A stretch of 64,000 nucleotides of DNA from Escherichia phage alia, in the sequence record NC_052655.1; one strand, given 5' to 3'. The notes under the pieces were generated by a model. The model saw only the letters and a program-made list of their open reading frames with translations. It was not told where the DNA came from and made no database searches. Position numbers and translations under genes: made by a program. Positions 14,721-57,498 of the stretch are shown one piece after another; position 1 is the stretch's first letter, and each line of letters begins with the position of its first letter.

Positions 14721-14777
14721 ACTCCCTCCGTATTATTACTTTAGCATTTTTAGACTAAAAAGTCCAAATGGTTTTAC

Positions 14778-44768: not shown

Positions 44769-44983
44769 TATTTTGAAAATTTTTATTTCTATAAAAAGGG
44801 GTGTGGGTTTCATGTACGGAAATTCACCCTCTGCACAGTATATCCAGAGTAAGTAGTATTCTGTACTCTGTTAATAAAGTATTTAATTTGTTTGTTGGAT
44901 TATGGTAGCTGATCTTTAAAAGGCATACTATCTCTTAACTACTACTTATAACAGAACAGTAAAATCGTTTTTATAAAAAGGAC

Positions 44984-45191: not shown

Positions 45192-45208
45192 TTTTTATAG
45201 GTATGCGT

Positions 45209-45319
45209 ATGATAATCATTCTCATTTGTAAATGAGAATCATTATCATTTAATTATGTAAGTGATAATCATTCTCAGTAAGAGAATGAGAATCATTAGCA
45301 AATGAGAATTTTCTCATTT
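45209..45319. promoter_or_regulatory. cluster of three Fur-box-like palindromes
   Basis: 'TGATAATCATTCTCATTTG-TA-AATGAGAATCATTATCA', 'GATAATCATTCTCA...GAGAATGAGAATCATTA' and 'AATGAGAA-TT-TTCTCATT'; core GATAATCATT matches the Fur-box half-site. Confidence 0.45.
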
Positions 45320-45580
45320 AGAGAATAACGCGCAGGGGCGGTGTTTGTCTCGCGCTCCCGTGTCCCCTCGCCATACAATAAGAATAGCATAACCAACAAC
45401 AAAAGCAAGCGATTATTTTTATCTTTACATTTCTTTACAAATTTATTTTAGACGAGCTACCGGCGATCAACCTTCCAACCAGTGCCCCCTGGTATGTTAG
45501 CCCCGCCTTTACGCCGTGGGGGTGGCGCTTCCTCTTCTGTATGTAAAACAGTATAAGCCCGATCCCTGGGCTTGTCAAGA

Positions 45581-45847
45581 TTATTTTTTGTTTTCTTGCC
45601 AGGATAGGACACCTAACCAAAAATACATGTCGCCCCGCGCCCCTGGCGGGATCTTGCTTTCCCCGCCGCCACTGCAAGCCCATAGATAACCATTAGCGAA
45701 CGGATCAAAATGATCTATTTCTTCCACCTTATAATCGCCCAGGTTGAGAACGGTTTCAACCTTTAAGCCCGTTGCGCTTGCTACCTGGTGCACCGTGCCG
45801 CCTTGCCAGCCCAATGAGTGCATGAGATGTAAAGGAGTATTTGTCAT
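45581..45847 (-). CDS. candidate small ORF inside a GC-rich island
   Basis: 88-aa ORF ('MTNTPLHLMHSLGWQGGTVHQV...') in a clearly more GC-rich stretch (about 45330-46100); several overlapping minus-strand ORFs make the coding call uncertain. Confidence 0.3.
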   Translation of the reverse strand: MTNTPLHLMHSLGWQGGTVHQVASATGLKVETVLNLGDYKVEEIDHFDPFANGYLWACSGGGESKIPPGARGDMYFWLGVLSWQENKK

Positions 45848-46217
45848 GGTATCGCCCTTTCTTTGATGTGCGCCCTGGTTGGCGCGGTAGAAAGATAATA
45901 GCCGTTTCCTTTATAGATAGCAAGCAAAAAAGAAATGAAAAAAGATTAAAAAAATGGTTGACGTTCCTCACCTGGTAGCGTAGTATTCATCTTGTCGAGG
46001 GGGGCGAGGCACAACGACAATAAACAAAAGGAGGGCGCAATGTAGGACGGGCAAAGGTGAGGATCTCCACAATCCACCGTCACAATAACATTACTTATAA
46101 AAGGTTGATAACGATGATCAAGAAAGAAAACAGCTTGACGGTTGGAACGATTAACGCTATCATTCTTGCCGTTCCATTTTGGGTTGTAGTAGCGGTTATT
46201 ATTTTTAAAAAATATTC

Positions 46218-46275
46218 TTGACAACGTTTTTTAATCTGATAAGATGTATCACATAGGGCGGCAATAGTGCCGCTC
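46218..46275 (+). promoter_or_regulatory. promoter + 5' stem-loop module
   Basis: TTGACA-N16-TAAGAT followed by 'CACATAGGGCGGCAATAGTGCCGCTC' (stem GCGGCA/TGCCGC), 22 nt upstream of the ATG. Confidence 0.6.
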
Positions 46276-46297
46276 ATAACAGAAGAGAGAAATAATC

Positions 46298-46570
46298 ATG
46301 GCATCATATAGCGCATCAATGATTGTAATGGGTATCACTGGTAAACCTATGCGCGGTGGCGGATCTTTCGCTAATATTAATATTGATGGACGTTTATCCC
46401 TGGACGCAGCGATCACAGTGGCACGGGAAACGTTTAAAAAAGAATGTAATTTCAATAAACAAGATTATCTCGGCTTCGTTATTGAAAAAACCGCGCGCTT
46501 TGTTGATTATAAAAGCCCGAAAATGATCGACACTACACTAAAGGCGCAAGATGTAGCTTTTTTGCTTTAA
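46298..46570 (+). CDS. hypothetical small protein (cassette gene)
   Basis: 90 aa; RBS GAGAGA. Confidence 0.5.
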   Translation: MASYSASMIVMGITGKPMRGGGSFANINIDGRLSLDAAITVARETFKKECNFNKQDYLGFVIEKTARFVDYKSPKMIDTTLKAQDVAFLL

Positions 46571-46573
46571 GGC

Positions 46574-46633
46574 TTGACACTGAAAAATAATTTGGTAATA
46601 TATACCACATAAGGCGGGAAATGGTTTCCCGCC
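46574..46633 (+). promoter_or_regulatory. promoter + 5' stem-loop module
   Basis: TTGACA-N17-AATATA followed by 'GGCGGGAAATGGTTTCCCGCC' (9-bp stem). Confidence 0.6.
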
Positions 46634-46658
46634 AGGCCATCAAAGAAAGGGTAACACA

Positions 46659-47021
46659 ATGAGCAAGCAAATCAATACTATCATGTTAAACCTGGTATCT
46701 TTCCGCGACGACGTGAAAAATCTTCCACGTGATGCAGTGGATGCACGGATCGAAAGCTATCGCTCACAGATCGCAACGCTACCGCTAAAACGTGATCAAC
46801 ATGCCGCTAATATGATGCTTAATGCTATGCTTAAAAAGATGATTCAATGTGATCTTACTCTGGCTTATGAATATGCTGGCGATCTTTTTGTAACATATAA
46901 CAAGCCCGTTCCAGGTATGAGCACCACGGAAGAATTGCATGCCTTAAATCTGCGACAAGATGCATGGGATAACATGCGCCGTGTTATGGTATGGGTAGAA
47001 AGCGGTAAAATTTACGAATAA
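46659..47021 (+). CDS. hypothetical small protein (cassette gene)
   Basis: 120 aa; RBS AAAGGG. Confidence 0.5.
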   Translation: MSKQINTIMLNLVSFRDDVKNLPRDAVDARIESYRSQIATLPLKRDQHAANMMLNAMLKKMIQCDLTLAYEYAGDLFVTYNKPVPGMSTTEELHALNLRQDAWDNMRRVMVWVESGKIYE

Positions 47022-47027
47022 AAACGG

Positions 47028-47080
47028 TTGACATTGCACTAAAACCTGATAAGCTATCTTAAAGCGGGAATAGTTCCCGC
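47028..47080 (+). promoter_or_regulatory. promoter + 5' stem-loop module
   Basis: TTGACA-N16-TAAGCT followed by 'GCGGGAATAGTTCCCGC'. Confidence 0.55.
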
Positions 47081-47099
47081 TTACATAGGATAAAACTTT

Positions 47100-47246
47100 A
47101 TGAAACAATATGTAATGAGTATTCACACCAAAAACGGCGCTACTGTTACGACTCCGGCACGGTTTGCACTTGTAAACCGTTGCAAGAGACTAAAACGAGA
47201 GCTAAAAAACAACCGTGCAACGGGCTTTAAACGCTGGGGAGGATAA
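47100..47246 (+). CDS. hypothetical small basic protein
   Basis: 48-aa ORF (below track cutoff) directly after the module. Confidence 0.35.
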   Translation: MKQYVMSIHTKNGATVTTPARFALVNRCKRLKRELKNNRATGFKRWGG

Positions 47247-47248
47247 TC

Positions 47249-47521
47249 TTGTTTTTTCTAAAAGTTTTTGATAATGTGATCGCTTTTGAACATGCTGCAA
47301 CGTTCAACCTGGCGAGATACGCTATCAGGTTTAAAGATAATGTTTATCCCCGTGCTGGTGGCGGTTACACTATCTTTAATCATCGTAACGCTCAATTAAC
47401 GGATATAACGAATCCAGATCCTGGAGTGTATCGCATAGGTTGGCTACCGTCAAAAGACGCGGCAAGCATGTTTAAGGTGTGTAAACTACTAACAGAAGAG
47501 GCGAACGAACATGGGGCGTGA
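47249..47521 (+). CDS. hypothetical small protein
   Basis: 90 aa, TTG start, GGAGGA RBS 8 nt upstream. Confidence 0.45.
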   Translation: MFFLKVFDNVIAFEHAATFNLARYAIRFKDNVYPRAGGGYTIFNHRNAQLTDITNPDPGVYRIGWLPSKDAASMFKVCKLLTEEANEHGA

Positions 47522-48065
47522 ATATGTGATCCAGTCCTGGGTAAAGCATGATGCTGATGATCCGCGCATAATACCAGATGACATGATCGATCACATGGTA
47601 GGGTATAGCGGGGAGCAGATAGGAAATCGAGCGGCAAAGAGCAACGGCAACACAAAGGCGCGATCCGTTCGCCCTGGTTGGCTGGCAAATGGTAACGCTG
47701 ACATTGCAAGCGCCGCAGATCCAAGCGATGACGCTAAAACTAATCCCTTATACAGCATTGATCCGGCTTTTAAGGTGTTAGAAGAGTATCCCGCTAAATT
47801 AGCCGCACTAGATAAGGCATACGAAGAAAAGCGCATGGCATGGACTGTATACAACACCGCTAAAATGGTGCTAGATGCAAAATTGATTAAAGCCCAGGAG
47901 AAGATCAATAAACTTGTTACCATAGTGCAAGAGGAAGACCAGGACGACCAGGAGGAAGAGGAAGAAATCATGCCTAACCTGGAAGAGGAAGAGATCCAGC
48001 CATACATGCCGACGGAAGAGGAAAAAAGACAAGCCCTAAAAAATTATGAAAATTGTCTTGTGTAA
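47511..48065 (+). CDS. hypothetical protein with acidic low-complexity tail
   Basis: 184 aa; 'QEEDQDDQEEEEEIMPNLEEEEIQ'. Confidence 0.5.
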   Translation: MGREYVIQSWVKHDADDPRIIPDDMIDHMVGYSGEQIGNRAAKSNGNTKARSVRPGWLANGNADIASAADPSDDAKTNPLYSIDPAFKVLEEYPAKLAALDKAYEEKRMAWTVYNTAKMVLDAKLIKAQEKINKLVTIVQEEDQDDQEEEEEIMPNLEEEEIQPYMPTEEEKRQALKNYENCLV

Positions 48066-48068
48066 GGC

Positions 48069-48125
48069 TTGACATATGCAAACAAGCCCCGTAATATGTA
48101 CCACATAAAGCGGGGCAACGCCCCA
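48069..48125 (+). promoter_or_regulatory. promoter + 5' stem-loop module
   Basis: TTGACA-N17-TAATAT followed by hairpin 'GCGGGGCAACGCCCC'. Confidence 0.55.
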
Positions 48126-48147
48126 TAAGGTGAAATAAAAAAATCAC

Positions 48148-48175
48148 TTGACACCTGAAATCAGTAAGCTATAAT
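48148..48175 (+). promoter_or_regulatory. consensus sigma70 promoter (tandem, second)
   Basis: Perfect TTGACA-N16-TATAAT; no stem-loop. Confidence 0.6.
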
Positions 48176-48212
48176 GCTTATATAGATTGAAACATTACTA
48201 AGGAATAAAAGC

Positions 48213-48392
48213 ATGGCTATTATTGCAAAGACTGAGATCGTAGGTTTAGATTCTATCATCCTGGCATATGAGGAAGCTATAGAAATGTATGTGGTTTCCT
48301 ATGGTGATTATATCCGTGAATATAAATCTATTGATCTAGCTTTTGAATGTTATATTCGCCAGGTCAATAAAGCCTATGATGATTATCGTTAA
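48213..48392 (+). CDS. hypothetical small protein
   Basis: 59-aa ORF (just below track cutoff) downstream of the tandem promoters. Confidence 0.35.
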   Translation: MAIIAKTEIVGLDSIILAYEEAIEMYVVSYGDYIREYKSIDLAFECYIRQVNKAYDDYR

Positions 48393-48411
48393 AAGTTTTA
48401 GTCTTGTGCTA

Positions 48412-48440
48412 TTGACAACGAACGATAGTACAAGCATAAT
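48412..48440 (+). promoter_or_regulatory. sigma70-like promoter
   Basis: TTGACA-N17-CATAAT; no stem-loop. Confidence 0.5.
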
Positions 48441-48487
48441 AACTTTTATCGGGAATACTCCTAACTAATCAAAAGAGATTAAAGACT

Positions 48488-48853
48488 ATGGCTAAAAATA
48501 TCAATGTTTCTGCTTATGCTACCCTGGCTAACACTGCTAAAATTGAACTATCCAGCATTGAAGCGGTACATATTAGCGCCCGTCGCTGGTTTCAAAAGTC
48601 TTATGGTAATACTTATTTCTCTTTGATGGTTGACGTTGAGATCGGCGGTAAACTGATTGAAGTCGTTAACGTTCCGTTTCAATATGGTTATGGTGATCAT
48701 TTTGATACCGTTGCCCTAGAAGAGTTTAGCAAGGTTATCAACCTGGAAGGTAAAGACTTTTCAAATTATGCTTACCTTTCCCGTTTTTGCCGTGACAATG
48801 GGATCGCTGTATACAGTCATGCAAGCGATGTTAAACGTAAAAAAGATTTATAA
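48488..48853 (+). CDS. hypothetical small protein (cassette gene)
   Basis: 121 aa. Confidence 0.5.
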   Translation: MAKNINVSAYATLANTAKIELSSIEAVHISARRWFQKSYGNTYFSLMVDVEIGGKLIEVVNVPFQYGYGDHFDTVALEEFSKVINLEGKDFSNYAYLSRFCRDNGIAVYSHASDVKRKKDL

Positions 48854-48859
48854 AAAGCA

Positions 48860-48917
48860 TTGACAGCACGAATAAAAAGCATATAATACTTATATCGAGA
48901 GCGGGAATAGTTCCCGC
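48860..48917 (+). promoter_or_regulatory. promoter + 5' stem-loop module
   Basis: TTGACA-N16-TATAAT followed by 'GCGGGAATAGTTCCCGC'. Confidence 0.65.
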
Positions 48918-48941
48918 CTCACTGAAAAAGAGATTAACATC

Positions 48942-49181
48942 ATGGCTAAATCTAAAATGTACAACGGTCACAAAAATAAAACTCATTGGAATGTAAGCCT
49001 TTGGATCAACAACGATGAAGGTTTTTATAATCTTGCGCGTGAATTTATCGCAGCTAACACCAATAAGAATGACGCAGCGCGTGATATGATGTTATTTCTT
49101 GAAAGTATGGATCAAGATAAAACGCCAGACGGATTCAAGTTCAGTAAAACTGCAATCCGTGCCGCTATGGTTGGAATGTAA
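48942..49181 (+). CDS. hypothetical small protein (cassette gene)
   Basis: 79 aa. Confidence 0.5.
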   Translation: MAKSKMYNGHKNKTHWNVSLWINNDEGFYNLAREFIAANTNKNDAARDMMLFLESMDQDKTPDGFKFSKTAIRAAMVGM

Positions 49182-49194
49182 AGGAGACATAAAA

Positions 49195-49275
49195 ATGAAA
49201 CATCGTTCGACCTATCTGACAAAACGTTTTAGCTTAGATCATAAATTAGGCTATTACGGAAGAAATAGAAAATAA
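49195..49275 (+). CDS. hypothetical micro-ORF
   Basis: 26-aa ORF with a GGAGA RBS; may be non-coding. Confidence 0.2.
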   Translation: MKHRSTYLTKRFSLDHKLGYYGRNRK

Positions 49276-49276
49276 T

Positions 49277-49336
49277 TTGACAACGTTTAAAATTAGTGTA
49301 AGATGTATCACATAGGGCGGGAAATGGTTTCCCGCC
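49277..49336 (+). promoter_or_regulatory. promoter + 5' stem-loop module
   Basis: TTGACA-N16-TAAGAT followed by 'CACATAGGGCGGGAAATGGTTTCCCGCC'. Confidence 0.6.
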
Positions 49337-49358
49337 AAATCAAAGAAAGGTTATCATT

Positions 49359-49586
49359 ATGGCTATCGTTATTGTTCGCGTATCCGGTACGGTTGGGATC
49401 TCCCAGGTAGTAGCAGTTATCACCGAGAAGAAAGGAGATGATCTTCACTCCTCCTTGAATAGCTGGGCGGTCGCTAACTTTGGGCAATGGTCGAGCGTTG
49501 AGTACATCGAATCCTACCAGGTGCCAACGATTAGCCTAACCGATCTAAATGTTGATCGCTTGTTGTGCCTGGATCAATTAAACTAA
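49359..49586 (+). CDS. hypothetical small protein (cassette gene)
   Basis: 75 aa. Confidence 0.5.
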   Translation: MAIVIVRVSGTVGISQVVAVITEKKGDDLHSSLNSWAVANFGQWSSVEYIESYQVPTISLTDLNVDRLLCLDQLN

Positions 49587-49594
49587 AAATAATA

Positions 49595-49652
49595 TTGACA
49601 AGATAACTAAAATCAGTAAAATGTAATGCATAGGGCGGCAATAGTGCCGCTC
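49595..49652 (+). promoter_or_regulatory. promoter + 5' stem-loop module
   Basis: TTGACA-N16-TAAAAT followed by 'GCATAGGGCGGCAATAGTGCCGCTC'. Confidence 0.6.
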
Positions 49653-49673
49653 CTAGTGAGAGAGATTATCAAG

Positions 49674-49889
49674 ATGGCTAATATCCGCACACTGTTAAAA
49701 AATGCAAGTCAAGTTTTATTTTCAGATGACGAGTATTTCAACAAAGACATTACAGGCGTGAAAAATTTAAAAGACGTGAAGGATGTTATCGGTATCCGTG
49801 GATCTTTACGTAAAGGTGACATATACGGTAACAAGGTGCAATATAAACTGTCAAAAGATTATGATTTTACTTTGACATTTATTTCATAA
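49674..49889 (+). CDS. hypothetical small protein (cassette gene)
   Basis: Start at 'MANIRT' (track start 49626 lies inside the stem-loop). Confidence 0.5.
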   Translation: MANIRTLLKNASQVLFSDDEYFNKDITGVKNLKDVKDVIGIRGSLRKGDIYGNKVQYKLSKDYDFTLTFIS

Positions 49890-49895
49890 AACCGC

Positions 49896-49956
49896 TTGCA
49901 ATACTGCAAAAATAAAGTAAACTGTATTCATCAAGGCGGTGGAATAGCCCACCGCC
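49896..49956 (+). promoter_or_regulatory. promoter + 5' stem-loop module
   Basis: TTGCAA-N16-TAAACT followed by 'GGCGGTGGAATAGCCCACCGCC' (8-bp stem). Confidence 0.5.
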
Positions 49957-49979
49957 TAACAAAGAGAAGAGGAAACATC

Positions 49980-50150
49980 ATGATCACTTTCGCTACCCGT
50001 GAAGCCGCTCGCAACGTTGCACGTAAAGTTAACGCCGCCAACCTGGGCGCTACGCTTAAAGCCCCGGTAAAAGATGAATCAGGTAAATGGATCTTCCCTG
50101 GTCTGCGTCACGCTGATAAGCTGGGAACGTTAACGCTAAAAAATAAATAA
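49980..50150 (+). CDS. hypothetical small protein (cassette gene)
   Basis: 56 aa, start at 'MITFATRE' with a GAGGAAA RBS. Confidence 0.45.
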   Translation: MITFATREAARNVARKVNAANLGATLKAPVKDESGKWIFPGLRHADKLGTLTLKNK

Positions 50151-50157
50151 AATCCGC

Positions 50158-50216
50158 TTGACAGTAGCATCATTTATAAGTAAAGTAACAACAACGGCGG
50201 GAAATGGTTTCCCGCC
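50158..50216 (+). promoter_or_regulatory. promoter + 5' stem-loop module
   Basis: TTGACA-N17-TAAAGT followed by 'GGCGGGAAATGGTTTCCCGCC'. Confidence 0.6.
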
Positions 50217-50236
50217 ATCAATAAAGAGATAAGATC

Positions 50237-50596
50237 ATGAAATCAGTAAAAGCAATTAAAACTTACATTGTGTCGGCTATTTCTTTTGATGGTACTACAA
50301 CCGAAAAAGAAAAGATCACCGAACTGATGCGCCGTTTTAACTCTGAATACTGGTATCCCGATAATCAAAAACGTTACAATTATAACGTGATCAAGGCGAT
50401 AGCCTCATGGTTACAAGGTTTACCGTCAGAAATCAATATTGCTTTTGATTATAACGAGATCGATCACTTGTTAATTGAATGGAAGTACATAAAAGAAACA
50501 AGCAAAGAAACAACCGTTACCCGTGAGCGGGAAAATTATTGGTTATATATTGCAAGCATGATCGTAATCCTGGCAAAACAGCATAACGTGGCGTAA
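50237..50596 (+). CDS. hypothetical small protein (cassette gene)
   Basis: 119 aa. Confidence 0.5.
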   Translation: MKSVKAIKTYIVSAISFDGTTTEKEKITELMRRFNSEYWYPDNQKRYNYNVIKAIASWLQGLPSEINIAFDYNEIDHLLIEWKYIKETSKETTVTRERENYWLYIASMIVILAKQHNVA

Positions 50597-50611
50597 TTAA
50601 GAGGAAGAAAC

Positions 50612-50749
50612 ATGAACGCATCACAGCAGATCGAAAAATTCAACCGCAGCAAGGCGCGTAAAGATTGGAACGAAGAGATCACCAAAAAAGGCGACAAGCG
50701 GAACAAAACAAAGAGAGATCGCAGCACAAAAAGATACTGGAACGAATAA
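50612..50749 (+). CDS. hypothetical small Lys/Arg-rich protein
   Basis: 45-aa ORF with a GAGGAAGAAA RBS. Confidence 0.35.
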   Translation: MNASQQIEKFNRSKARKDWNEEITKKGDKRNKTKRDRSTKRYWNE

Positions 50750-50756
50750 CAAAAAA

Positions 50757-50777
50757 GGGCGCAATAAGCGCCCTTTT
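50757..50777 (+). terminator. intrinsic terminator (GGGCGC-aataa-GCGCCC-TTTT)
   Basis: Perfect 6-bp GC stem plus T-run. Confidence 0.6.
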
Positions 50778-50867
50778 AGCTTATATAGAGGCTTGTTACC
50801 CATAGGCAATGGTAACGCCAGGATAAGCCTATAAACCACGTTAGACAGCTTTACAGGAGCTTTAAAA

Positions 50868-51050
50868 ATGAAATTAGAAGAAATAAGCAAGGCACTAGCC
50901 CAGGGGCAAAGGTTAAACGCCCGTTATCGTGATCAATATGGCTTCATAACCAGCGGCGTGATCCTGGGGATTGAAGGCAATAAGATTTTTATTGACACGT
51001 TGAAAAACGTTGTATATAGTGACAATATAATCTCAATAAAACATATATGA
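50868..51050 (+). CDS. hypothetical small protein
   Basis: 60 aa; upstream hairpin 'GTTACC-cataggcaat-GGTAAC' near 50797. Confidence 0.45.
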   Translation: MKLEEISKALAQGQRLNARYRDQYGFITSGVILGIEGNKIFIDTLKNVVYSDNIISIKHI

Positions 51051-51058
51051 GGCAAGAA

Positions 51059-51460: not shown

Positions 51461-51484
51461 CAACATAGAAAGCACGTTATAAGA
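51458..51484 (+). promoter_or_regulatory. sigma70-like promoter
   Basis: TTGACA (overlapping the upstream stop)-N15-TATAAG; GGAGAA RBS follows. Confidence 0.35.
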
Positions 51485-51507
51485 TACACACAACAAAGGA
51501 GAACTAC

Positions 51508-51810
51508 ATGAACGGCATAGCTAAAACGTTTTTTCTTTTTTCTGGTGTAAATAATCCATCAATAAAAGTCGATAGTGTAAAAGAAAACAATACTATCACC
51601 GCTAAATTGTTTCAAGATGAAACAAATAACGTGCTAATCATTAATCTTAAAGAAATAACGAAAGGTTATTATACTATTGCTTACCATGCGATCTATCATG
51701 CGGGTACTAGTGAGGAAGTGCAAACAAGCAACAACGAAAGCGCGGCGCTACCTGGTGATCTGGTGCTGGGTGTTATCAGTTTAATTGTCAATGATTTTTT
51801 TAAGGAGTAA
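51508..51810 (+). CDS. hypothetical protein
   Basis: 100 aa. Confidence 0.45.
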   Translation: MNGIAKTFFLFSGVNNPSIKVDSVKENNTITAKLFQDETNNVLIINLKEITKGYYTIAYHAIYHAGTSEEVQTSNNESAALPGDLVLGVISLIVNDFFKE

Positions 51811-52068
51811 AACCATGCCCTATTTACATTTATTTTTCGGGATCTTATTGTCAGGATCTTTTTTCTTCTGTATACTTGTTTCTATTGTAAACCACGTTTT
51901 AAGACATTAAGGAAACAGCATGAAAATTATTCCCGTACAATATAGCGTAATAAATCCAGCATACGAGGAAGGAAGGAAAACAAGCATGGCTTTATGTTGT
52001 ATTGCTACTATAGCCATGTTGTTATGCATTGTGTTTTAATAGGTTTTATAGTTGTACGCTTTAAAGGC

Positions 52069-52097
52069 TTGACAATTTTTTGTTATGCTTTAAACTA
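52069..52097 (+). promoter_or_regulatory. sigma70-like promoter
   Basis: TTGACA-N17-AAACTA; weak -10. Confidence 0.35.
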
Positions 52098-52139
52098 TAT
52101 CTTGAAAACGGCAAAGGCCGCAAACAAAAGGGTAAAATT

Positions 52140-52463
52140 ATGAAATCTGTGATCGGTGTTTATTTGGATAACTCTGATTTTTTCTATCATCGTGCTCGTT
52201 TCCTTGATGCGATTGAAATGATAGAATCAGGCTTTAAAGAGTATCGCCTTGCACATGATGACCTGGAAGCATTACAGGGCAATAGTGTTTTTACATTGCA
52301 AGCTAAAGCACTATGCAAAAGCCGGATCGACATTGCGAGCAAAAAGATAGAACGCGGCATGTCCTGGTTACGCACCGCAGAAATCAACATGGGGCAATGG
52401 TACGGCGAAAACTTAGAAAATAAACATGCTTTTGTCAATGTAGAAAATATTGAAGATTATTGA
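52140..52463 (+). CDS. hypothetical small protein (cassette gene)
   Basis: Start at 'MKSVIGVY' (track start 52080). Confidence 0.45.
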   Translation: MKSVIGVYLDNSDFFYHRARFLDAIEMIESGFKEYRLAHDDLEALQGNSVFTLQAKALCKSRIDIASKKIERGMSWLRTAEINMGQWYGENLENKHAFVNVENIEDY

Positions 52464-52525
52464 TTGACAGCACACCTGATAAGGAGTATATTGTATCTCA
52501 TAGAGCGGGGAAATGGTTTCCCCGC
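52464..52525 (+). promoter_or_regulatory. promoter + 5' stem-loop module
   Basis: TTGACA-N17-TATATT followed by 'GCGGGGAAATGGTTTCCCCGC'. Confidence 0.6.
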
Positions 52526-52545
52526 CTTAACAGAAGAGATAAGAT

Positions 52546-52830
52546 ATGAAGATCACAAAAGCACTTTCCAACTATGCAGCACGTCGCGGATTATGCTTAT
52601 CCGTTGAAAACTTAGGGAAAGAAGATTTTTTGTGCTTTTGGGAGCTTGAGAATGATAATGAGTGGATCTTCTCTTATTCTATCTGCGAAGATCAAAACGG
52701 TTGTTTATTAACCTGGCGCGGTAATATCTATCTACCGGAAGAAATCAAAGAAGAATTGCCAGGCACGATCATGACTGAGAAACAGCTTAAGGAAGTGATT
52801 AATTTTGTAGGGCAAAACATTAAAAAATAA
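52546..52830 (+). CDS. hypothetical small protein (cassette gene)
   Basis: 94 aa. Confidence 0.5.
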   Translation: MKITKALSNYAARRGLCLSVENLGKEDFLCFWELENDNEWIFSYSICEDQNGCLLTWRGNIYLPEEIKEELPGTIMTEKQLKEVINFVGQNIKK

Positions 52831-52831
52831 T

Positions 52832-52891
52832 TTGACACTAGGCAAACAACGTAGTAAAGTTTATCACATAGGGCGGGAAATGGTTTCCCGC
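52832..52891 (+). promoter_or_regulatory. promoter + 5' stem-loop module
   Basis: TTGACA-N17-TAAAGT followed by 'CACATAGGGCGGGAAATGGTTTCCCGC'. Confidence 0.6.
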
Positions 52892-52914
52892 TCACAACAG
52901 AAGAGAAACACATC

Positions 52915-53085
52915 ATGATCCCGACTATGTTTTACGTATCGCGCAAAGGTCACAATATTTTTTGGTCTGAAGATTTAAATGAAGCCATGACGTTTGCCCG
53001 TGATCGTGTTGCTATCGGTGGCGTTAACATTACCGTAACCGATGAAAACGGCATTGAATACTATAACGGCGACGATGAAGAGTAA
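52915..53085 (+). CDS. hypothetical small protein
   Basis: 56-aa ORF (below track cutoff). Confidence 0.4.
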   Translation: MIPTMFYVSRKGHNIFWSEDLNEAMTFARDRVAIGGVNITVTDENGIEYYNGDDEE

Positions 53086-53092
53086 TTAATAA

Positions 53093-53113
53093 GGCGGGGG
53101 AGTATTCCCCGCC
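53093..53113 (+). promoter_or_regulatory. 5' stem-loop without an obvious -35/-10
   Basis: 'GGCGGGGGAGTATTCCCCGCC' 20 nt upstream of the next ATG. Confidence 0.4.
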
Positions 53114-53132
53114 GTCAATAAAGAGGTAAATC

Positions 53133-53402
53133 ATGAAAATATCTTTGGACGTTGCAATCAAGGCCATCGAATCCGGTTACACCCTGGTAAAAGATGATAA
53201 GGCTAAAACCGTGCACCACGTTAACAAGGAAACAGGCGAAAGCATGATCACATATAAAGCCGCCTACTTTCTCCAATCAGTAGCAGATCCGCGCGTACAA
53301 CGCCAGGTTACAGCGGCTATTGCTAAAAAATTATGTGCTTTACAGGGCACAAGTTTTAACGAGATCGCCCCGTGTTTTGACTGGTCGAGCTTGAAAAAAT
53401 AG
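53133..53402 (+). CDS. hypothetical small protein (cassette gene)
   Basis: 89 aa. Confidence 0.5.
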   Translation: MKISLDVAIKAIESGYTLVKDDKAKTVHHVNKETGESMITYKAAYFLQSVADPRVQRQVTAAIAKKLCALQGTSFNEIAPCFDWSSLKK

Positions 53403-53403
53403 T

Positions 53404-53461
53404 TTGACAACAATTATAAATCGGGTAGAATGTATTTCGTAGGGCGGCAATAGTGCCGCTC
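53404..53461 (+). promoter_or_regulatory. promoter + 5' stem-loop module
   Basis: TTGACA-N16-TAGAAT followed by 'GGGCGGCAATAGTGCCGCTC'. Confidence 0.6.
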
Positions 53462-53482
53462 ACAACTAAAAGAGAAATCAGC

Positions 53483-53677
53483 ATGGCGCTTAAAAAACTA
53501 ACAAGCAATACTCGTTGGGATGAAATCGACGGAGAAGTTTACATTTTCGCCCGTAAACCAGGTGATCAAAAATGGTCAAAGGCTTTTACTTGCCACCCTG
53601 CAACAATAGATCTAATAAAAAGTAAAGGTTTACGTGAAGCAGTAGCGAGAAGTTTACTGATCCCTTATAAAAAATAG
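53483..53677 (+). CDS. hypothetical small protein (cassette gene)
   Basis: Start at 'MALKKLTS' (track start 53453). Confidence 0.45.
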   Translation: MALKKLTSNTRWDEIDGEVYIFARKPGDQKWSKAFTCHPATIDLIKSKGLREAVARSLLIPYKK

Positions 53678-53678
53678 T

Positions 53679-53740
53679 TTGACAATATGCTGTTATCTGG
53701 TAAAGTGTACGACATAGGGCGGGGCAATAAGGCAACGCCC
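53679..53740 (+). promoter_or_regulatory. promoter + 5' stem-loop module (variant loop)
   Basis: TTGACA-N16-TAAAGT followed by 'GGGCG-gggcaataaggcaa-CGCCC'. Confidence 0.5.
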
Positions 53741-53758
53741 ATTAATGAGGGTAGAATC

Positions 53759-53863
53759 ATGTTAGAGAAAATTTTCACGGTTGTAATAGTGGGCCTGGCG
53801 TTATCGGTTGGATTGGTTGCAACTATGGCTAACATGATCCTATCTTCCCACGGTATTGGATAA
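53759..53863 (+). CDS. hypothetical hydrophobic micro-protein
   Basis: 34-aa ORF 'MLEKIFTVVIVGLALSVGLVATMANMILSSHGIG'. Confidence 0.3.
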   Translation: MLEKIFTVVIVGLALSVGLVATMANMILSSHGIG

Positions 53864-53873
53864 GGTGAATCAA

Positions 53874-54089
53874 ATGATCACGAATAAGACAGGTAAAACA
53901 GAATTTTTACGCGGCTTGCAAATAGGTAAACCTGAGATCTGGCATTGCACTAAATCCGCGCATAATGAAATGAAAGATTTTACCGCTACTTTACAACGTG
54001 TTAAAATATCTATCACACAGAAAAAAGCCTTGTTAGTAGTAGAAAACGAGATCCCGCAAACCATTATTATTGTCGAGCGTACAGCATGA
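53874..54089 (+). CDS. hypothetical small protein
   Basis: Start at 'MITNKTG' (track start 53856). Confidence 0.45.
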   Translation: MITNKTGKTEFLRGLQIGKPEIWHCTKSAHNEMKDFTATLQRVKISITQKKALLVVENEIPQTIIIVERTA

Positions 54090-54472
54090 AAACTGAAATC
54101 ATTAACGAAATGATCAACGGCTATAAAGAAGCCTTTATTTTTGCCGAACCAGCGACGGATCACAATGGGGAATATATTGAGAATCTAGACGATTATGATT
54201 TTTCTCCTAGCGCCCTGAAACGTATTACCAGCGATGTGACCGCCTTTTGTAGTGCCAATGTTGCCGCTATCTCTGAGGCAATGAGCGACGGCGCAACAGC
54301 AAACCAGATCGGGAATGACTTACATTTCACCCGTAACGGTCACGGCGTAGGCTTTTGGGATCGCCCTGAAATATACACTACTAACACCGCCAACCGCCTA
54401 ACAAATGCAGCTAAATTAATGCCATCGGTGCATGCTTACATTGGTGAAGATAATTTGATTTATATTGAATAA
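54086..54472 (+). CDS. hypothetical protein
   Basis: 128 aa; ATGA start/stop overlap. Confidence 0.5.
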   Translation: MKTEIINEMINGYKEAFIFAEPATDHNGEYIENLDDYDFSPSALKRITSDVTAFCSANVAAISEAMSDGATANQIGNDLHFTRNGHGVGFWDRPEIYTTNTANRLTNAAKLMPSVHAYIGEDNLIYIE

Positions 54473-54478
54473 AAAGTA

Positions 54479-54537
54479 TTGACACCGATCCCCAATATGG
54501 TATTATTTACCACGTAGGCGGGAAATGGTTTCCCGCC
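54479..54537 (+). promoter_or_regulatory. promoter + 5' stem-loop module
   Basis: TTGACA-N16-TATTAT followed by 'GGCGGGAAATGGTTTCCCGCC'. Confidence 0.6.
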
Positions 54538-54560
54538 AGGTAATCAAAAAGGTAAATACT

Positions 54561-54950
54561 ATGCGCAACCTGGTTTCTGTTTCTAACGTTGAAAAATTCC
54601 AATCTTTACAGGGTATCGTTAACAACGTAGCGCCTTTTTTAGTAAACGGCTTGATTGCAAAGATGAAAAATAAACATCATGCGGCATGGTCTGCTTATTG
54701 CTTTGATAATGATGAAAAAGCGGCTGAAATGATGTTAGATATGCTGTTAGATAGTGTAGAAACATCTTTACCGGAAAACATCGCAGAAGAGATCACCTAT
54801 CGTTATAATATGGCGATCACTTACCAGGAGGTTGCGCAATTCAACATGATGGATGATGACGAACAACAGGATCAAGAAATGTTTTGGGAGTATGCAGATC
54901 GTCAATCGGCTTTTGATGAAAAGTTAGCGATGTATTATAACGAATATTAA
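54561..54950 (+). CDS. hypothetical small acidic protein (cassette gene)
   Basis: Start at 'MRNLVSVS' (track start 54525). Confidence 0.5.
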   Translation: MRNLVSVSNVEKFQSLQGIVNNVAPFLVNGLIAKMKNKHHAAWSAYCFDNDEKAAEMMLDMLLDSVETSLPENIAEEITYRYNMAITYQEVAQFNMMDDDEQQDQEMFWEYADRQSAFDEKLAMYYNEY

Positions 54951-54967
54951 TACACGGTAAAAGAAAG

Positions 54968-54990
54968 GGGCGCACTAAGCGCCCTTTTTT
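54968..54990 (+). terminator. intrinsic terminator (GGGCGC-actaa-GCGCCC-TTTTTT)
   Basis: Same stem as the terminators at 50757 and 56137. Confidence 0.65.
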
Positions 54991-55335
54991 GTATTCTTTT
55001 TTCACGATGGAAACAACACGTAAAGAATAGGCGTAAAGGTGGCGTAAAACAGTCTAAAACCGATTATAACCGCTTAAACAAGGTAACAATGACTAATCAC
55101 CTTGCCAGGATGAAAAAGCTGTTAGAAAGCTGTTTAGAGCGTTTAAAGCACATAGGAAATAACTTGCTTTTTATCTTGCCTTTTATCCTGCTTTTGATTA
55201 TTATTATGGAACGGGCGGCACCTGGGGACAGGGGAAGATAATCACCGGAAGATCTTATCATATATTGATAGCTTCCCCCTATCAAACAACAAAACATTAA
55301 AGAGATAAACTATCAAATCTTTACAATCCTACCTA

Positions 55336-55364
55336 TTGACCGATAAATCACAACAGTTTAATAT
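55336..55364 (+). promoter_or_regulatory. sigma70-like promoter
   Basis: TTGACC-N17-TAATAT, about 48 nt upstream of the ATG at 55413. Confidence 0.4.
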
Positions 55365-55412
55365 TGTTTTTAGAGGTTAGAATATTCCCCAAACGAAAAC
55401 AGGAAAAAGAAA

Positions 55413-55649
55413 ATGAAAGAAGTCATGATCCTCAAAAAATCACCTATTTTACGTGGCGGTTTTATCGCTTACTCTGATGATCTGTTAATTGCAACAGTTG
55501 CAAAAATACTAAAATCAGAAGAGGATAGTAAAAACGGCGTTTATCGTATCTGTTTCACCCGTGGAAAATTACAAGGCAAGATCGCCTATGCCTTTGATTT
55601 ACAAGATGTAAATGATAAAATCTGCGCTGTTATTGATTATGCAAAATAA
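55413..55649 (+). CDS. hypothetical small protein
   Basis: 78 aa. Confidence 0.45.
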   Translation: MKEVMILKKSPILRGGFIAYSDDLLIATVAKILKSEEDSKNGVYRICFTRGKLQGKIAYAFDLQDVNDKICAVIDYAK

Positions 55650-55661
55650 TTAACTTTCTTA

Positions 55662-55690
55662 TTGACACCGGATCACGCTTACATTATTAT
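55662..55690 (+). promoter_or_regulatory. sigma70-like promoter
   Basis: TTGACA-N17-TATTAT; downstream 'CACGTAGGGCAAATC' looks like a degenerate copy of the stem-loop. Confidence 0.5.
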
Positions 55691-55736
55691 TTATCACGTA
55701 GGGCAAATCATTTTAAACGGTAAACGAGGAAACACC

Positions 55737-56120
55737 ATGAGCAATATCATCAACCTGGCGGCTACTGTAAACGGTAAAGATTTTAACGGCGCTGTAGATC
55801 GTGATCCTATGTGGTGCTTATCAGTGTTTAAAGGCGATCTGGTTGAAGTTAGAACAACCGAAGGGTATAGCGATGATTATAAATGCGAGATCCATTTACA
55901 TAACTGGTACACGGGTAAAACTTATGCGCTGAATCATGCGTTTATCGGGAAAATTGAATATCGCGAGATGATCGACGAAGAAACGGGGCAAGATTTTAGC
56001 GAGCATGTTTATATTCGTTCAGAAACATTAGCCGAACGTTTGATCGAGAAAATGAAAGCAAAAAATAAAATTAATTTATCTCATTGGATTGATATAACAA
56101 ACGATCCGGCTTATCAGTAA
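55737..56120 (+). CDS. hypothetical small protein (cassette gene)
   Basis: Start at 'MSNIINLA' (track start 55662) with a GAGGAAA RBS. Confidence 0.5.
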   Translation: MSNIINLAATVNGKDFNGAVDRDPMWCLSVFKGDLVEVRTTEGYSDDYKCEIHLHNWYTGKTYALNHAFIGKIEYREMIDEETGQDFSEHVYIRSETLAERLIEKMKAKNKINLSHWIDITNDPAYQ

Positions 56121-56136
56121 ATAACATTTCATACAA

Positions 56137-56162
56137 GGGCGCTTATTGCGCCCTTTCTTTTT
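56137..56162 (+). terminator. intrinsic terminator (GGGCGC-ttatt-GCGCCC-TTTCTTTTT)
   Basis: Third copy of the GGGCGC/GCGCCC stem; closes the cassette region. Confidence 0.65.
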
Positions 56163-56364
56163 ACCTAAATAAAGATGATAGCTTTTACCTATCAAAAACG
56201 TTCACCGAAAAAAGTGAATAGATCGCGGTATCGAGCTAATCAAGGAGCAGATGAACAACCATACCATGAAGATCATAAGGCGCTTACAGCGTGTTTTAGA
56301 CCGCTTATTTTTAATTTCTTCATGTAACTATCTGGCAAAAACAGCCTTTTTCTTGTCTTTCCTC

Positions 56365-56445
56365 TTAAATGATAATCATTCTTATTTATAGCTGATTATT
56401 TATGCAATAAACTGCATAATGCAATAATGATAATCATTCTTAACT
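56365..56445. promoter_or_regulatory. Fur-box-like repeats
   Basis: Two copies of 'AATGATAATCATTCTTA' separated by about 40 nt. Confidence 0.4.
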
Positions 56446-56819
56446 TAAGACCATCTAACTTATAAAATAATAAGTTATCTAACTAAATTAAAGCTAATTA
56501 TCTTACTTTTATTTATAACATACTGTTACTATCTTATTGATAACCTTATATTAAACAACAATAATCAATGTAAATCATTACTAAGCTAACTATAATCTAT
56601 CTAACCCTTAAAACTACAATTATAATCTATCAAATTGTTGCACAAAGTAACTATTAAATTGTTAGTAACATTGCTAAATAATTAATATCCTATCTATTTA
56701 TGATCTAATCTTTACCTCCCTATCTATTACCTAAATAACCATTTCATGTGGTAATCATTTCATACAATAACTATAACAAGAAATATAATTCGCAAGCGTA
56801 TCATTAGCAGCCTATGCCG

Positions 56820-56985
56820 GACACATAGGCGGCTAATAATAACGCAACTACACACCCCACATAATAACCATCACCGATAGTTATTATTTGTGCTTATGTA
56901 GCTTGCAACAATTGCAAGCGCAACAATATACATGGTATATTGTATCCCTTACATTGTTGCGGTGCGTTATTATTAGCTAATGTTT
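56820..56985. repeat. inverted repeats around a TTGCAA-caa-TTGCAA palindrome
   Basis: 'GCTAATAATAACGCA' with its reverse complement 'GCGTTATTATTAGC' about 130 nt away; central 'GCTTGCAA-caa-TTGCAAGC'; hairpin 'GCCTATG-ccggaca-CATAGGC'. Confidence 0.5.
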
Positions 56986-57282
56986 AGAACATTGGCTATA
57001 ATATAAGCTAAGTAATAAGCTAGTCAATAATAAACATAATGAATAATGACATTAATGATCATAATGCGCCACCCTCCAGGGGGCGCTATGTGAACACAAA
57101 GAAATCATTCTTGTCAAGAAAAATATCACCCTATTGCGCAAAATTATTTATATCTGAATAGATGATTTTTCATACTATTGCCCCCTATAACATACCTCAT
57201 TTGTTGAGCCTACTTTCTTAAAAGCGCAATAAAGTAGAATTATCTTGATTTTTAGTCGGTTTTATAGTACAGAAAGTATGCA

Positions 57283-57298
57283 AATGATAATCATTATC
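57283..57298. promoter_or_regulatory. near-consensus Fur box
   Basis: 'AATGATAATCATTATC' matches 16 of 19 positions of GATAATGATAATCATTATC. Confidence 0.45.
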
Positions 57299-57462
57299 AG
57301 CTATCCTCCAGGGTGGCACTATTTCACGCCAGATCATTTCATTTGGCAAGGTGTATATAGATGTTTAGAAATGCCAAGCCATTGATTTACTTAGAATTTA
57401 TCTGTTTTGTTGTGAGTAGTACCTTTCTTGCTTAGAAAATAATCAAAAGTCTTATAAGTCAT

Positions 57463-57498
57463 TGAATGATAATGCAAATGATAATTATTCTCATTGAT
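57463..57498. promoter_or_regulatory. Fur-box-like hexamer array
   Basis: 'TGAATGATAATGCAAATGATAATTATTCTCATTGAT'. Confidence 0.4.

Follow-up and report, generated by a model that had tools for sequence, protein, structure and literature searches.

In Escherichia coli, Fur sites occur in clusters, as at yoeA, fhuF and fepB-entC. The yoeA cluster holds 12 sites in 95 bp, and overlapping sites in footprinted clusters lie 6 bp apart (Chen et al. 2007, PMC2189734). Such host clusters nearly always cover the σ70 promoters of iron genes. Fur boxes also occur on phage DNA: temperate phages carry them 5′ of cargo genes (sitABCD on lambdoid phages, PMC6969025; stx1), where they serve iron-related cargo operons as ordinary operators. 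Purified Fur gel-shifted the nohA site of a lambdoid prophage, a site also recovered by selection in vivo (PMC2189734).

The DNA analysed here (the window) is a stretch of 64,000 nucleotides from Escherichia phage alia (NC_052655.1), a Justusliebigvirus (phi92-like). This virulent phage of E. coli belongs to the phi92/phAPEC8 type. Like the temperate phages it carries host-type Fur boxes on phage DNA, but these are not beside iron-related cargo genes. An initial annotation had described palindromes at four sites, in ORF-poor DNA on either side of a small-gene array; all four are present, and the ORF map bears out their setting. It had also read one of them as a near-consensus Fur box, and that sequence, GCAAATGATAATCATTATC (57280-57298), is 2 mismatches away from the 19-bp Fur consensus. 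Sequence comparison and position together point to genuine arrays of host Fur-Fe2+ sites, at four fixed non-coding places, that would work in cis at the DNA ends and at a border (probability roughly 0.4). The features are collected in the table.

Table. Predicted Fur-site clusters, their palindromes and neighbouring features in the window
Feature	Position	Strand	Details
Three direct repeats	44968..45187	.	about 70-78 nt, rich in A/T tracts; directly left of cluster 1; from repeat search
Fur cluster 1	45205..45305	.	eight overlapping PWM sites (bits): 45205 (17.9), 45211 (16.4), 45228 (21.1), 45234 (15.3), 45257 (16.6), 45263 (10.4), 45281 (21.2), 45287 (8.1); four 7-1-7 units forming two large palindromes
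Palindrome 1 of 45209-45320	arms 45209-45227 and 45230-45248		95% complementary
Palindrome 2 of 45209-45320	arms 45262-45275 and 45281-45294
Palindrome 3 of 45209-45320	45301-45320		AAATGAGAATTTTCTCATTT; degenerate fifth palindrome of the cluster 1 area, 7-0-7, one base short
Conserved GC-rich non-coding element	45320..45545	.	deep conservation; invariant blocks include CGGTGTTTGTCTCGCG and CTACCGGCGAT
σ70 promoter, near-consensus	45550..45578	-	TTGACA-17-TATACT; A-rich upstream element
Right-terminal small-gene array	46135..56155	+	about 20 near-consensus TTGACA σ70 promoters, reading towards the right DNA end
Fur cluster 2	56365..56447	.	two units: 56365 (15.7 bits) and 56371 (13.2); 56423 (20.9) and 56429 (8.8)
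Repeated palindrome	copies at 56368 and 56426		AATGATAATCATTCTTA
Direct terminal repeat, 343 bp	57207..57549	.	mapped from the annotated DTR-L and DTR-R of phi92
Fur cluster 3	57274..57298	.	57280 (24.7 bits), 57274 (9.7)
Fur cluster 4	57468..57498	.	three sites in 6-bp steps: 15.4, 20.1 and 13.7 bits
Palindrome of cluster 4	57468-57498		GATAATGCAAATGATAATTATTCTCATTGAT

By every available sequence test, the palindromes are supported as Fur boxes. Scored with a position weight matrix (PWM) trained on 16 E. coli K-12 Fur-regulon promoters, the phage sites reach 15-24.7 bits, and the 16 E. coli sites, scored by leave-one-out, 8.2-22.9 bits (median 18.5); 13 phage sites score at least 13 bits, five of them 20.1-24.7 bits. 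Run over 50 kb of E. coli as a control, the PWM picked the known Fur sites and nothing else. Comparison with random AT-rich sequence, the check named in the initial annotation, places the sites far above chance: 5 sites of at least 20 bits stand in 3,142 bp of non-coding DNA, where 0.004-0.02 are expected, and a Markov model of this AT-rich non-coding DNA, run 1000 times, never gave 5 or more sites of at least 18 bits. Matches to the Fur consensus with up to 3 mismatches number 5 (0.00 expected, 100 shuffles); matches to AATGAKAATCATT with up to 1 mismatch number 14 (0.55 expected).

The architecture agrees as well. A hexamer (GATAAT) is arranged in 7-1-7 fashion into units of the form TGAKAATCATTMTCA, with tgtAAATGATAATCATTATCATTTaca as the 27-mer consensus, and neighbouring sites inside a unit are spaced by exactly 6 bp in every case. 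The phage-site and E. coli site matrices correlate at r = 0.94, and their flank preferences agree, including at bases not used in selection. The 19-bp/7-1-7 motif, the 6-bp phasing and the size of 25-100 bp are all shared with the E. coli clusters named above, whose sites the phage sites equal or exceed in information score. GAGAAT, which replaces the consensus GATAAT in half of the phage units, is over-represented relative to host sites; this variant is also present in a real E. coli site, fecI.

The location of the sites relative to the DNA ends is precise. The physical ends of the virion DNA, by mapping to the phi92 annotation, are the 343-bp direct terminal repeat; GTTR|AGC is read at both of its cut sites, and at least 6 sequence records begin at the base matching 57207. 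Cluster 3 lies 68-92 bp inside the left cut and cluster 4 lies 52-82 bp inside the right cut, so Fur sites stand at both virion DNA ends. (The initial annotation had overlooked this position in the terminal repeat, beside the physical ends.) The 57280 site of cluster 3 has the top Fur score of the genome, and the cluster 4 stretch is the portion of the repeat still alignable with Klebsiella relatives. Cluster 2 lies 3′ of the last terminator of the array (56135-56155) and about 0.8 kb ahead of the right terminal repeat; cluster 1 lies at the inner border of the array, with 12.3 kb, or 8.3% of the genome, between it and the right end. The sites are restricted to these places: the ~146-kb genome of a 97-98% identical relative, used for the whole-genome scan, contains no clustered Fur sites outside the four clusters, and one lone 20.8-bit site elsewhere, about the chance expectation.

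Position is conserved across genera. All four clusters hold their places in Phapecoctavirus tuntematon, of a second genus, despite diverged sequence; the counterpart of cluster 3 (L018 28311) scores 16.5 bits, and those of cluster 4 score 16.2 and 18.9 bits. Cluster 1 is also kept in a second subfamily, in Vequintavirinae PVP-SE1. Its unit number differs among relatives (2 in arall, 1 in PVP-SE1), and the palindrome at 45301-45320 is intact in PVP-SE1, L146 and FBKp34, scoring 15-17 bits there. The direct repeats left of cluster 1 have an analogue in PVP-SE1, at the same place but with a different sequence. To the right, the conserved GC-rich element contains a hairpin with a compensatory change (CC to AA/GG to TT), and Fur-like palindromes always precede its homologues: each of the 9 true homologues, which represent about 6 lineages, has cluster 1-type sites beside it, placed -36 to -135 relative to the core. 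The near-consensus promoter beyond the element, kept in all six lineages, reads leftwards, into the element and towards cluster 1; its upstream element is common to the + strand promoter at 46218, as an inverted repeat.

From position, we infer a function as a cis-acting Fur landing pad at ends and borders. The predicted Fur sites are kept at four places: two in the 343-bp repeat, one in sub-terminal non-coding DNA, and one at the inner border of the 12-kb immediate-early array. When the host has iron, some 13-17 Fur dimers per genome copy would coat stretches of 25-100 bp, and bound Fur could serve as a cis roadblock or marker at the DNA ends and the early-region border. In the simplest version, RNA polymerase would be barred from starting in, or crossing, the terminal repeat and border zones, which would be zones of convergent transcription. 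The packaging motor might also be slowed just ahead of the terminal cut. Against this model, the packaging motor or RecBCD would probably displace Fur. Moreover, cluster 1 is 12 kb from the end, and "end-associated" therefore excludes it unless the analogy with the T5 injection stop is used. These phages plate well on iron-replete laboratory media, so any Fur repression would be partial or limited to accessory functions.

Other phages were scored in the same way. In lambda, sites of at least 14 bits occur only at 48447-48471, as one double site ending 31 bp from the right end; this box is the counterpart of the nohA and nohB sites of lambdoid prophages, beside the cohesive ends. T5 has a site pair 228-252 bp from its first-injected left end, in the 12 kb examined, and DT57C has such a pair too. 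A T5 array (9549-9712) falls within the injection stop signal of the annotation, and 36 bp separate it from the major nick. (DT57C and tuntematon have an identical 28-mer in common.) T7, the control, has no Fur score above 12.5 bits. That the best-scoring sites of lambda, T5 (within the 12 kb examined only) and the phi92 type lie near DNA ends suggests a use of Fur by phages that is unreported; the literature searched does not describe Fur as a cis host factor at phage ends.

Several other explanations bear on the same observations. The sites might be bound by a phage protein or another host factor, or act by folding into hairpins as DNA or RNA, with the resemblance to Fur boxes being coincidental or convergent. 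We consider this quite unlikely. It could draw on large, perfect palindromes of 38-39 bp, which could extrude as cruciforms or form RNA hairpins, and on a slight extra preference of phage units, relative to host sites, for a C/G centre, GAGAAT and AAAT/ATTT flanks. Agreement with the Fur matrix nevertheless continues into flanks outside the selection. Phages unrelated to this one (T5-like, lambda) carry the motif too, as do viral contigs ranging from 21 to 52% GC, which is more simply explained by a universal host protein. No Fur homologue was found in the phage, nor any homologue of the DT57C terminal-repeat proteins in the phi92-like genome, a comparison that covered just the first 15 kb of a T5-like genome. 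A phage regulator, for which the initial annotation had offered the palindromes as operators, is thus an unlikely ligand. The half-site spacing differs from that of ArgR and Zur boxes. The lambdoid equivalent, finally, is bound by Fur in experiment (PMC2189734), and binding of host Fur to the phage sites is very likely. Granting this, the sites might be a decoy: hundreds of replicating copies, each with 13-17 strong sites, would titrate Fur and derepress host iron uptake, supplying iron for enzymes such as the phage class I ribonucleotide reductase. The annotation does include such an enzyme; the sites are many, strong, tandem and non-coding; the unit number of cluster 1 varies among close relatives, as for a dosage element; and the Fur titration assay rests on multicopy Fur boxes. 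However, a decoy does not need fixed positions at ends and borders, kept across subfamilies, and cluster 1 of PVP-SE1 is a single palindrome, as lambda has only one double site. T5 breaks down host DNA early (A1 annotation), so derepression of host genes cannot be the purpose there. A decoy is very improbable.

Another reading is that of classical operators, each cluster lying over a promoter, with phage transcripts repressed with iron and released under iron starvation; the candidate targets are a terminal-repeat promoter feeding the operon that starts at 57941, or the transcript of the conserved element by cluster 1. Some promoter-like sequence is suitably placed: TCTTGATT (-35-like) precedes the cluster 3 box at a distance of 27-29 nt and is conserved between the window and tuntematon; TTGAAT-18-TATTCT fits cluster 4 in the window; the PVP-SE1 palindrome fills the spacer of TTGAAT-18-CAGAAT directly 5′ of the conserved element; and a palindrome precedes that element at a fixed -42/-36 in three lineages. 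But the -35-like hexamers at cluster 1 lack conservation, and the cluster 4 spacing is shifted by 6 bp in tuntematon. Promoter-like sequences in the AT-rich non-coding DNA number 12, against 10.9 expected, and those overlapping clusters 2-4 are weak. The initial annotation had proposed iron control of phage genes. For the array this is not supported, since Fur scores stay at or below 8.5 bits within 30 bp of all 20 strong σ70 promoters checked; the palindromes do not serve as operators for promoters within the array. For the 57941 operon the case is weak: a conserved promoter-like site (TTGTAA-17-TATGAT, 57789-57817) does follow about 290 bp downstream of cluster 4, but without a Fur site. T5-like arrays, between convergent genes, and the lambda site, beside the cohesive ends, are not in promoter contexts either. 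Classical operators are unlikely.

A role as packaging or DNA-entry cofactor appears rather doubtful. Fur, bound 30-250 bp short of the end that is packaged last and injected first, would, as a brake or bend, help terminase to recognise the cut, as IHF does at lambda cosB; alternatively, Fur would mark or hold the entering end, with cluster 1 as counterpart of the T5 injection-stop region. The distances to the DNA ends in the window, lambda and T5/DT57C fit, as do the T5 array in the injection stop signal and the absence of sites from T7, whose ends are of a different kind. The distance of cluster 1 from the right end, as a share of the genome, also compares with the T5 repeat: 10,139 of 121,750 bp, or 8.3% (Davison preprint, 10.1101/866236), and 8.4% in the RefSeq record used here (NC_005859, annotated to 10,219). 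However, the comparison consists of three phage groups and one negative control, and the cut sites are unrelated to the palindromes. We know of no fur-dependent growth defect of lambda or T5. The T5 array, furthermore, lies right of the calculated shear point, in DNA still outside the cell at the stop (10.1101/866236).

The landing pad may belong to a wider pattern: Fur boxes would be a cis element common to phage chromosome ends in general and so far unnoticed, and phi92-like phages would have a T5-like terminal early region besides; this extension is unlikely. If it held, the best Fur sites of lambda, T5 and the phi92 type would lie just inside the last-packaged, first-injected end, where host Fur, loaded with iron, would serve as a brake or marker when packaging terminates or DNA entry begins. 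The phi92-like terminal early region would comprise 8.3% of the genome, with about 35 small genes under host promoters reading towards the end, and its inner border (Fur array, repeats and conserved element) would correspond to the injection stop signal of T5.

Compared with known systems, the phage clusters differ from the E. coli host clusters in their setting: the phage is virulent, they occupy its terminal repeat and border regions, and neither a promoter nor an iron-related gene can be demonstrated there. Cluster 1 and the injection-stop region of T5 (Repeat Region 3, in its left terminal repeat; 10.1101/866236) have several features in common: the same palindromes in an array, a non-coding location at about 8% of genome length from an end, a place between convergent transcription units, and a border with a terminal block of small early genes that read towards that end. 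The T5 array, however, lies within a 10-kb terminal repeat, beside paired DnaA boxes and a site-specific nick, whereas the repeat of the window measures 343 bp and DnaA boxes are not enriched in the window (TTWTNCACA, 11 against 10.8 expected; 0 in non-coding regions). Phi92-like phages are not known to transfer their DNA in two steps. The lambda, nohA and nohB sites resemble those of phi92-type phages in that a Fur box stands only tens of bp from where the phage DNA ends; each is a single double site by the cohesive-end site, interpreted as a host-gene promoter site, whereas phi92-like phages have four clusters and a direct terminal repeat. A further parallel is offered by IHF at lambda cosB and attP and by the DnaA boxes of the T5 repeat, where an abundant host DNA-binding protein is recruited to non-coding control DNA near phage DNA ends, as proposed here for Fur; unlike IHF, Fur would bring to these ends a binding that depends on iron.

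The palindromes were scored with a Fur weight matrix (symmetric, 19 bp, 16.3 bits) trained on 16 E. coli K-12 Fur-regulon promoter regions: fepA-fes, fepD-entS, fepB-entC, fhuA, fhuF, fecI, cirA, fiu, tonB, exbB, sodA, ryhB, fur, gpmA, yoeA, and nohD. The matrix recovers published Fur boxes; its hits in a 50-kb E. coli control region are known Fur sites only, including a second fepB site absent from training; and the host sites score 8.2-22.9 bits (median 18.5) when left out one at a time. Every palindrome listed in the initial annotation was found at its coordinates, and the check proposed there, matrix scoring against an AT-rich background, puts the phage sites at 13.7-24.7 bits. Within the 3,142 bp of non-coding sequence, five sites reach at least 20 bits (0.004-0.02 expected), and none of 1000 Markov simulations trained on the same AT-rich non-coding DNA reached five sites of at least 18 bits. 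Consensus searches of the window gave five matches to the 19-bp Fur consensus with at most three mismatches, against 0.00 expected from shuffles, and 14 matches to the core AATGAKAATCATT with at most one mismatch, against 0.55 expected; all 14 lie inside the four clusters. Shuffles and Markov nulls drawn from the same DNA thus rule out chance or AT-richness as the source of the palindromes.

The basic unit is a 7-1-7 palindrome, within which overlapping sites are spaced exactly 6 bp apart. The same 6-bp phasing occurs in footprinted Fur clusters (Chen et al. 2007, PMC2189734). Alignment of 28 non-redundant phage units, centred on the 7-1-7 register, yields the consensus AAATGATAATCATTATCATTT and a matrix that matches E. 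coli sites in the same register with r = 0.94. Phage and E. coli also agree in preferring A-A at positions -9 and -8, outside the bases used for picking units. Matrix scores, phasing, correlation, and flank agreement together identify the palindromes, by sequence, as top-grade Fur boxes, and Fur very probably binds them (roughly 0.85).

Fur-matrix sites and neighbouring features (window coordinates)
Feature	Position	Strand	Score (bits)	Remarks
Genes for a CapR repeats + T5orf172 domain protein (465 aa) and a NADAR-domain protein (183 aa)	42819-44768			two genes just upstream of cluster 1
Three direct repeats, ~70-78 nt	44968-45187			left of cluster 1; A/T-tract-rich, containing TTTTGAAAATGAAAAGTTCAA
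Cluster 1 site	45205		17.9	
Cluster 1 site	45211		16.4	
Cluster 1 site	45228		21.1	
Cluster 1 site	45234		15.3	
Cluster 1 site	45257		16.6	
Cluster 1 site	45281		21.2	
Conserved GC-rich non-coding element, ~220 nt	45320-45545			invariant blocks CGGTGTTTGTCTCGCG, CTACCGGCGAT
Near-consensus promoter TTGACA-17-TATACT	45578 to 45550	-		points into conserved element
Near-consensus sigma-70 promoters, ~20	46135-55690	+		perfect TTGACA; one per small gene
Cluster 2 site	56365		15.7	
Cluster 2 site	56423		20.9	
Second structured non-coding element	56800-57027			perfect 15-nt arms 56832-56846 and 56963-56977 around three hairpins
Promoter-like site TTGACT-16-TATATT	57027 to 57000	-		points into second structured element
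Cluster 3 site	57280		24.7	
Cluster 4 site	57468		15.4	
Cluster 4 site	57474		20.1	
Cluster 4 site	57480		13.7	
Promoter-like site of 57941 operon, TTGTAA-17-TATGAT	57789-57817			conserved; also in tuntematon

At 97-98% identity, the window matches Justusliebigvirus phages (subfamily Stephanstirmvirinae), among them EmilieFrey (Bas61), arall, and BME3; its relatives in this subfamily are phi92/phAPEC8-like myoviruses of ~146 kb. (Four or five "Campylobacter phage" records with C. jejuni as stated host, including A150, A145, C3, and A110a, are ~97% identical to the window phage; mislabelling or contamination is the probable cause.) Up to ~40 kb the genes are on the minus strand, and beyond that point on the plus strand. 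An array of ~35 small plus-strand genes is flanked by two stretches poor in ORFs (44.77-46.30 kb and 56.33-57.94 kb), and the sites lie in these stretches, as the initial annotation had it. One promoter per gene at a genome end is a pattern typical of an immediate-early host-takeover block. Promoters are called here as consensus matches; several of those in the array have the motif AAAAAATAWTCTTGACAA upstream. On the other side of cluster 1, one neighbouring gene encodes a NADAR domain, a type tied to reversal of DNA ADP-ribosylation. The remaining genome, scanned in EmilieFrey, contains no clustered sites. It contains a single isolated 20.8-bit site within a coding region, about the number predicted by chance (GATAATAAAATTCATTTTC, MZ501063 116011-116029, at the start of a putative glutaredoxin gene and without a 6-bp partner).

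Stephanstirmvirinae genomes end in direct terminal repeats (2025 paper, PMC12695924). Those annotated in phi92 (1-343 and 148270-148612) set the termini used here: phi92 position 1 corresponds to window 57207, and the repeat to 57207-57549. At least six records begin at the base equivalent to 57207, and the UAB_1 annotation gives the same repeat. BME3 (PP239276.1) has an annotated 342-bp repeat, 57280-57621, that starts exactly at the best Fur box, which would suggest a cut at the box itself. That idea was dropped: around the terminus, the BME3 sequence is arranged as A-B-A, and its annotated left repeat is offset by 73 bp from phi92 and at least five other records. Both repeat boundaries read GTTR^AGC, the caret marking the cut (57206/57207, TTGTTG^AGCCTAC; 57549/57550, GCGTTA^AGCACCT), a candidate terminase cut-site motif unrelated to the palindromes. 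The repeat contains cluster 3 at 68-92 bp from its left cut and cluster 4 at 52-82 bp from its right cut, so that each end of the virion DNA carries both. Cluster 2 precedes the right repeat by ~0.8 kb, and the distance of cluster 1 from the right end is 12.3 kb (8.3%); between these two, the small-gene array forms the right-terminal segment, with transcription towards that end. Upstream of the 57941 operon, three AAAGGGGTGTGTCGAAATAAATCGG-like boxes (57503-57717) lie across the right border of the repeat; Phapecoctavirus tuntematon retains them in part.

Tuntematon, which belongs to a different genus, has all four clusters at the same places in diverged sequence, with scores of 15-21 bits. 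Cluster 1 is part of a module that is kept far outside the Stephanstirmvirinae and comprises, in this order: ~70-nt direct repeats; one to four Fur-like palindromes; the GC-rich ~220-nt element; and the near-consensus minus-strand promoter, which points back to the palindromes. This layout places cluster 1 between convergent transcription units. The conserved element is common to the Stephanstirmvirinae and the Vequintavirinae phage PVP-SE1, and its homologues also include Klebsiella phage FBKp34; in all nine true homologues, Fur-matrix sites lie at -36 to -135 relative to the element core. The number of units varies, from four in the window to two in arall and one in PVP-SE1. The direct repeats, for which PVP-SE1 has a positional analogue of different sequence, might serve a lineage-specific protein as iteron-like sites.

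The conserved element may represent a non-coding RNA or belong to a replication origin. It contains a hairpin with a compensatory change (CC to AA, GG to TT); RNAalifold, applied to both strands, gave a positive covariation term and no clear case for a structured RNA. No known RNA families or tRNAs were found in the window's non-coding regions, and the element has no Rfam match. An origin at cluster 1 has no support, since the neighbouring genes encode the CapR/T5orf172 and NADAR proteins, not replication initiators. The second structured element shows compensatory changes against tuntematon (ACGCA/TGCGT to AGCCA/TGGCT); an IMG/VR scan with one of its 15-mers returned mainly chance matches.

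Searches with the palindromes (blastn) produced unexpected matches in T5-like phages, of which 12-15 kb per genome were scanned. In the DT57C terminal repeat, non-coding DNA between convergent genes contains sites of 16-21 bits, and one 28-mer there is identical to a tuntematon palindrome. In T5 (NC_005859), the annotated injection stop signal contains an array at 9549-9712 that reaches 21.0 bits and is 36 bp away from the major nick as annotated; a further pair lies 228-252 bp from the left end, which we take to be the first-entering end, and recurs at the same place in DT57C. Across these T5-like phages, the sites near that end and in the injection stop signal score 17-21 bits (in DT57C, 7365-7983 and 14697-14721 of the scanned segment). 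Phage saus47N has paired DnaA boxes followed by a Fur-matrix array. The palindromes and DnaA boxes of the T5 region were described by Davison, with no mention of Fur (preprint, 10.1101/866236). DnaA boxes as in T5 are not enriched in the window.

Lambda is the last of three phage groups on which the cross-family comparison rests, and T7, with nothing above 12.5 bits, its one negative control. (For lambda and T5, the direction of packaging and injection is assumed here.) In all 48,502 bp of lambda (NC_001416), the only sites of at least 14 bits are an overlapping pair at 48447 and 48453 (17.6 and 17.8 bits). The pair forms a perfect 7-1-7 TGATAATCATTATCA unit, 48447-48471, that ends 31 bp from the right end, just upstream of GGGTCCT, presumably cosQ. 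The same box is the K-12 "nohB/nohD" Fur site: this training site proved to belong to the DLP12 lambdoid prophage, in its cos region and at 35-55 bp from cosN. Chen et al. report a gel shift by Fur of the equivalent nohA site and cite its in vivo selection (PMC2189734). A palindrome scan of IMG/VR found at least 120 loci, 26 with at least four strong sites within 600 bp, the latter on contigs of 21-52% GC unrelated to the phi92-like or T5-like groups. In one 62-kb viral contig of 21% GC (IMGVR_UViG_3300026512_000013), 600 bp of non-coding DNA within 2200-3000 hold 11 sites of at least 15 bits, directly adjoining a DnaA-box-like repeat array (TTATCAACA, TTATTCACA), a Fur-plus-DnaA pairing as in the T5 repeat.

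Bacterial iron genes have Fur boxes as their textbook operators, and classical operators are one rival account of the clusters. The initial annotation had suggested that they could bring phage genes under iron control; within 30 bp of the ~20 array promoters, however, the best Fur score is 8.5 bits, so such control of the cassette genes is unsupported, and the boxes do not serve the array as gene operators. Boxes do lie upstream of the 57941 operon, as was also noted there; the operon's promoter-like site lies ~290 bp beyond cluster 4 and has no Fur box. The other initial suggestion, operators for a phage regulator, is unlikely. The motif occurs in unrelated contigs, so varied that a universal host protein is indicated rather than a lineage-specific phage regulator, and tblastn found neither a phage Fur homologue nor a protein shared with the T5-like terminal repeat. 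A different binding protein is another rival; the motifs of ArgR, Zur, TyrR, IHF, and FNR differ from the palindromes in half-site spacing or sequence. A packaging or entry cofactor would suit clusters 3 and 4 at the virion ends, set against a cut sequence that bears no relation to the boxes, and a Fur sponge is a further rival.

We infer the function of the sites from their position, in zones of converging transcription units: DNA ends; sub-terminal DNA; and the terminal early region's border. The best reading is a cis-acting landing pad for Fur. Iron-loaded Fur would cover the cluster stretches, serving as a roadblock or marker, and would limit transcription that starts in or crosses the terminal repeat and the border; it might also influence the packaging motor or the entering end. 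Open-access papers yielded none linking Fur with Phapecoctavirus or these phages, T5-like repeats, or the lambda cos region, an absence that is no proof.

Confinement of strong Fur sites to the terminal repeat and early-region border of a virulent phage suggests that Fur has a second use, in which this host factor acts on phage DNA. If so, infection steps such as DNA entry, packaging, or early transcription through the ends would be tied to host iron state, a link relevant in the iron-poor gut and for therapy with these broad-host-range phages. That lambda and T5 carry these boxes near their ends as well supports the second use. It would give a function to lambda's conserved palindrome, beside the right cohesive end, and a new candidate to the 50-year-old T5 injection-stop problem.
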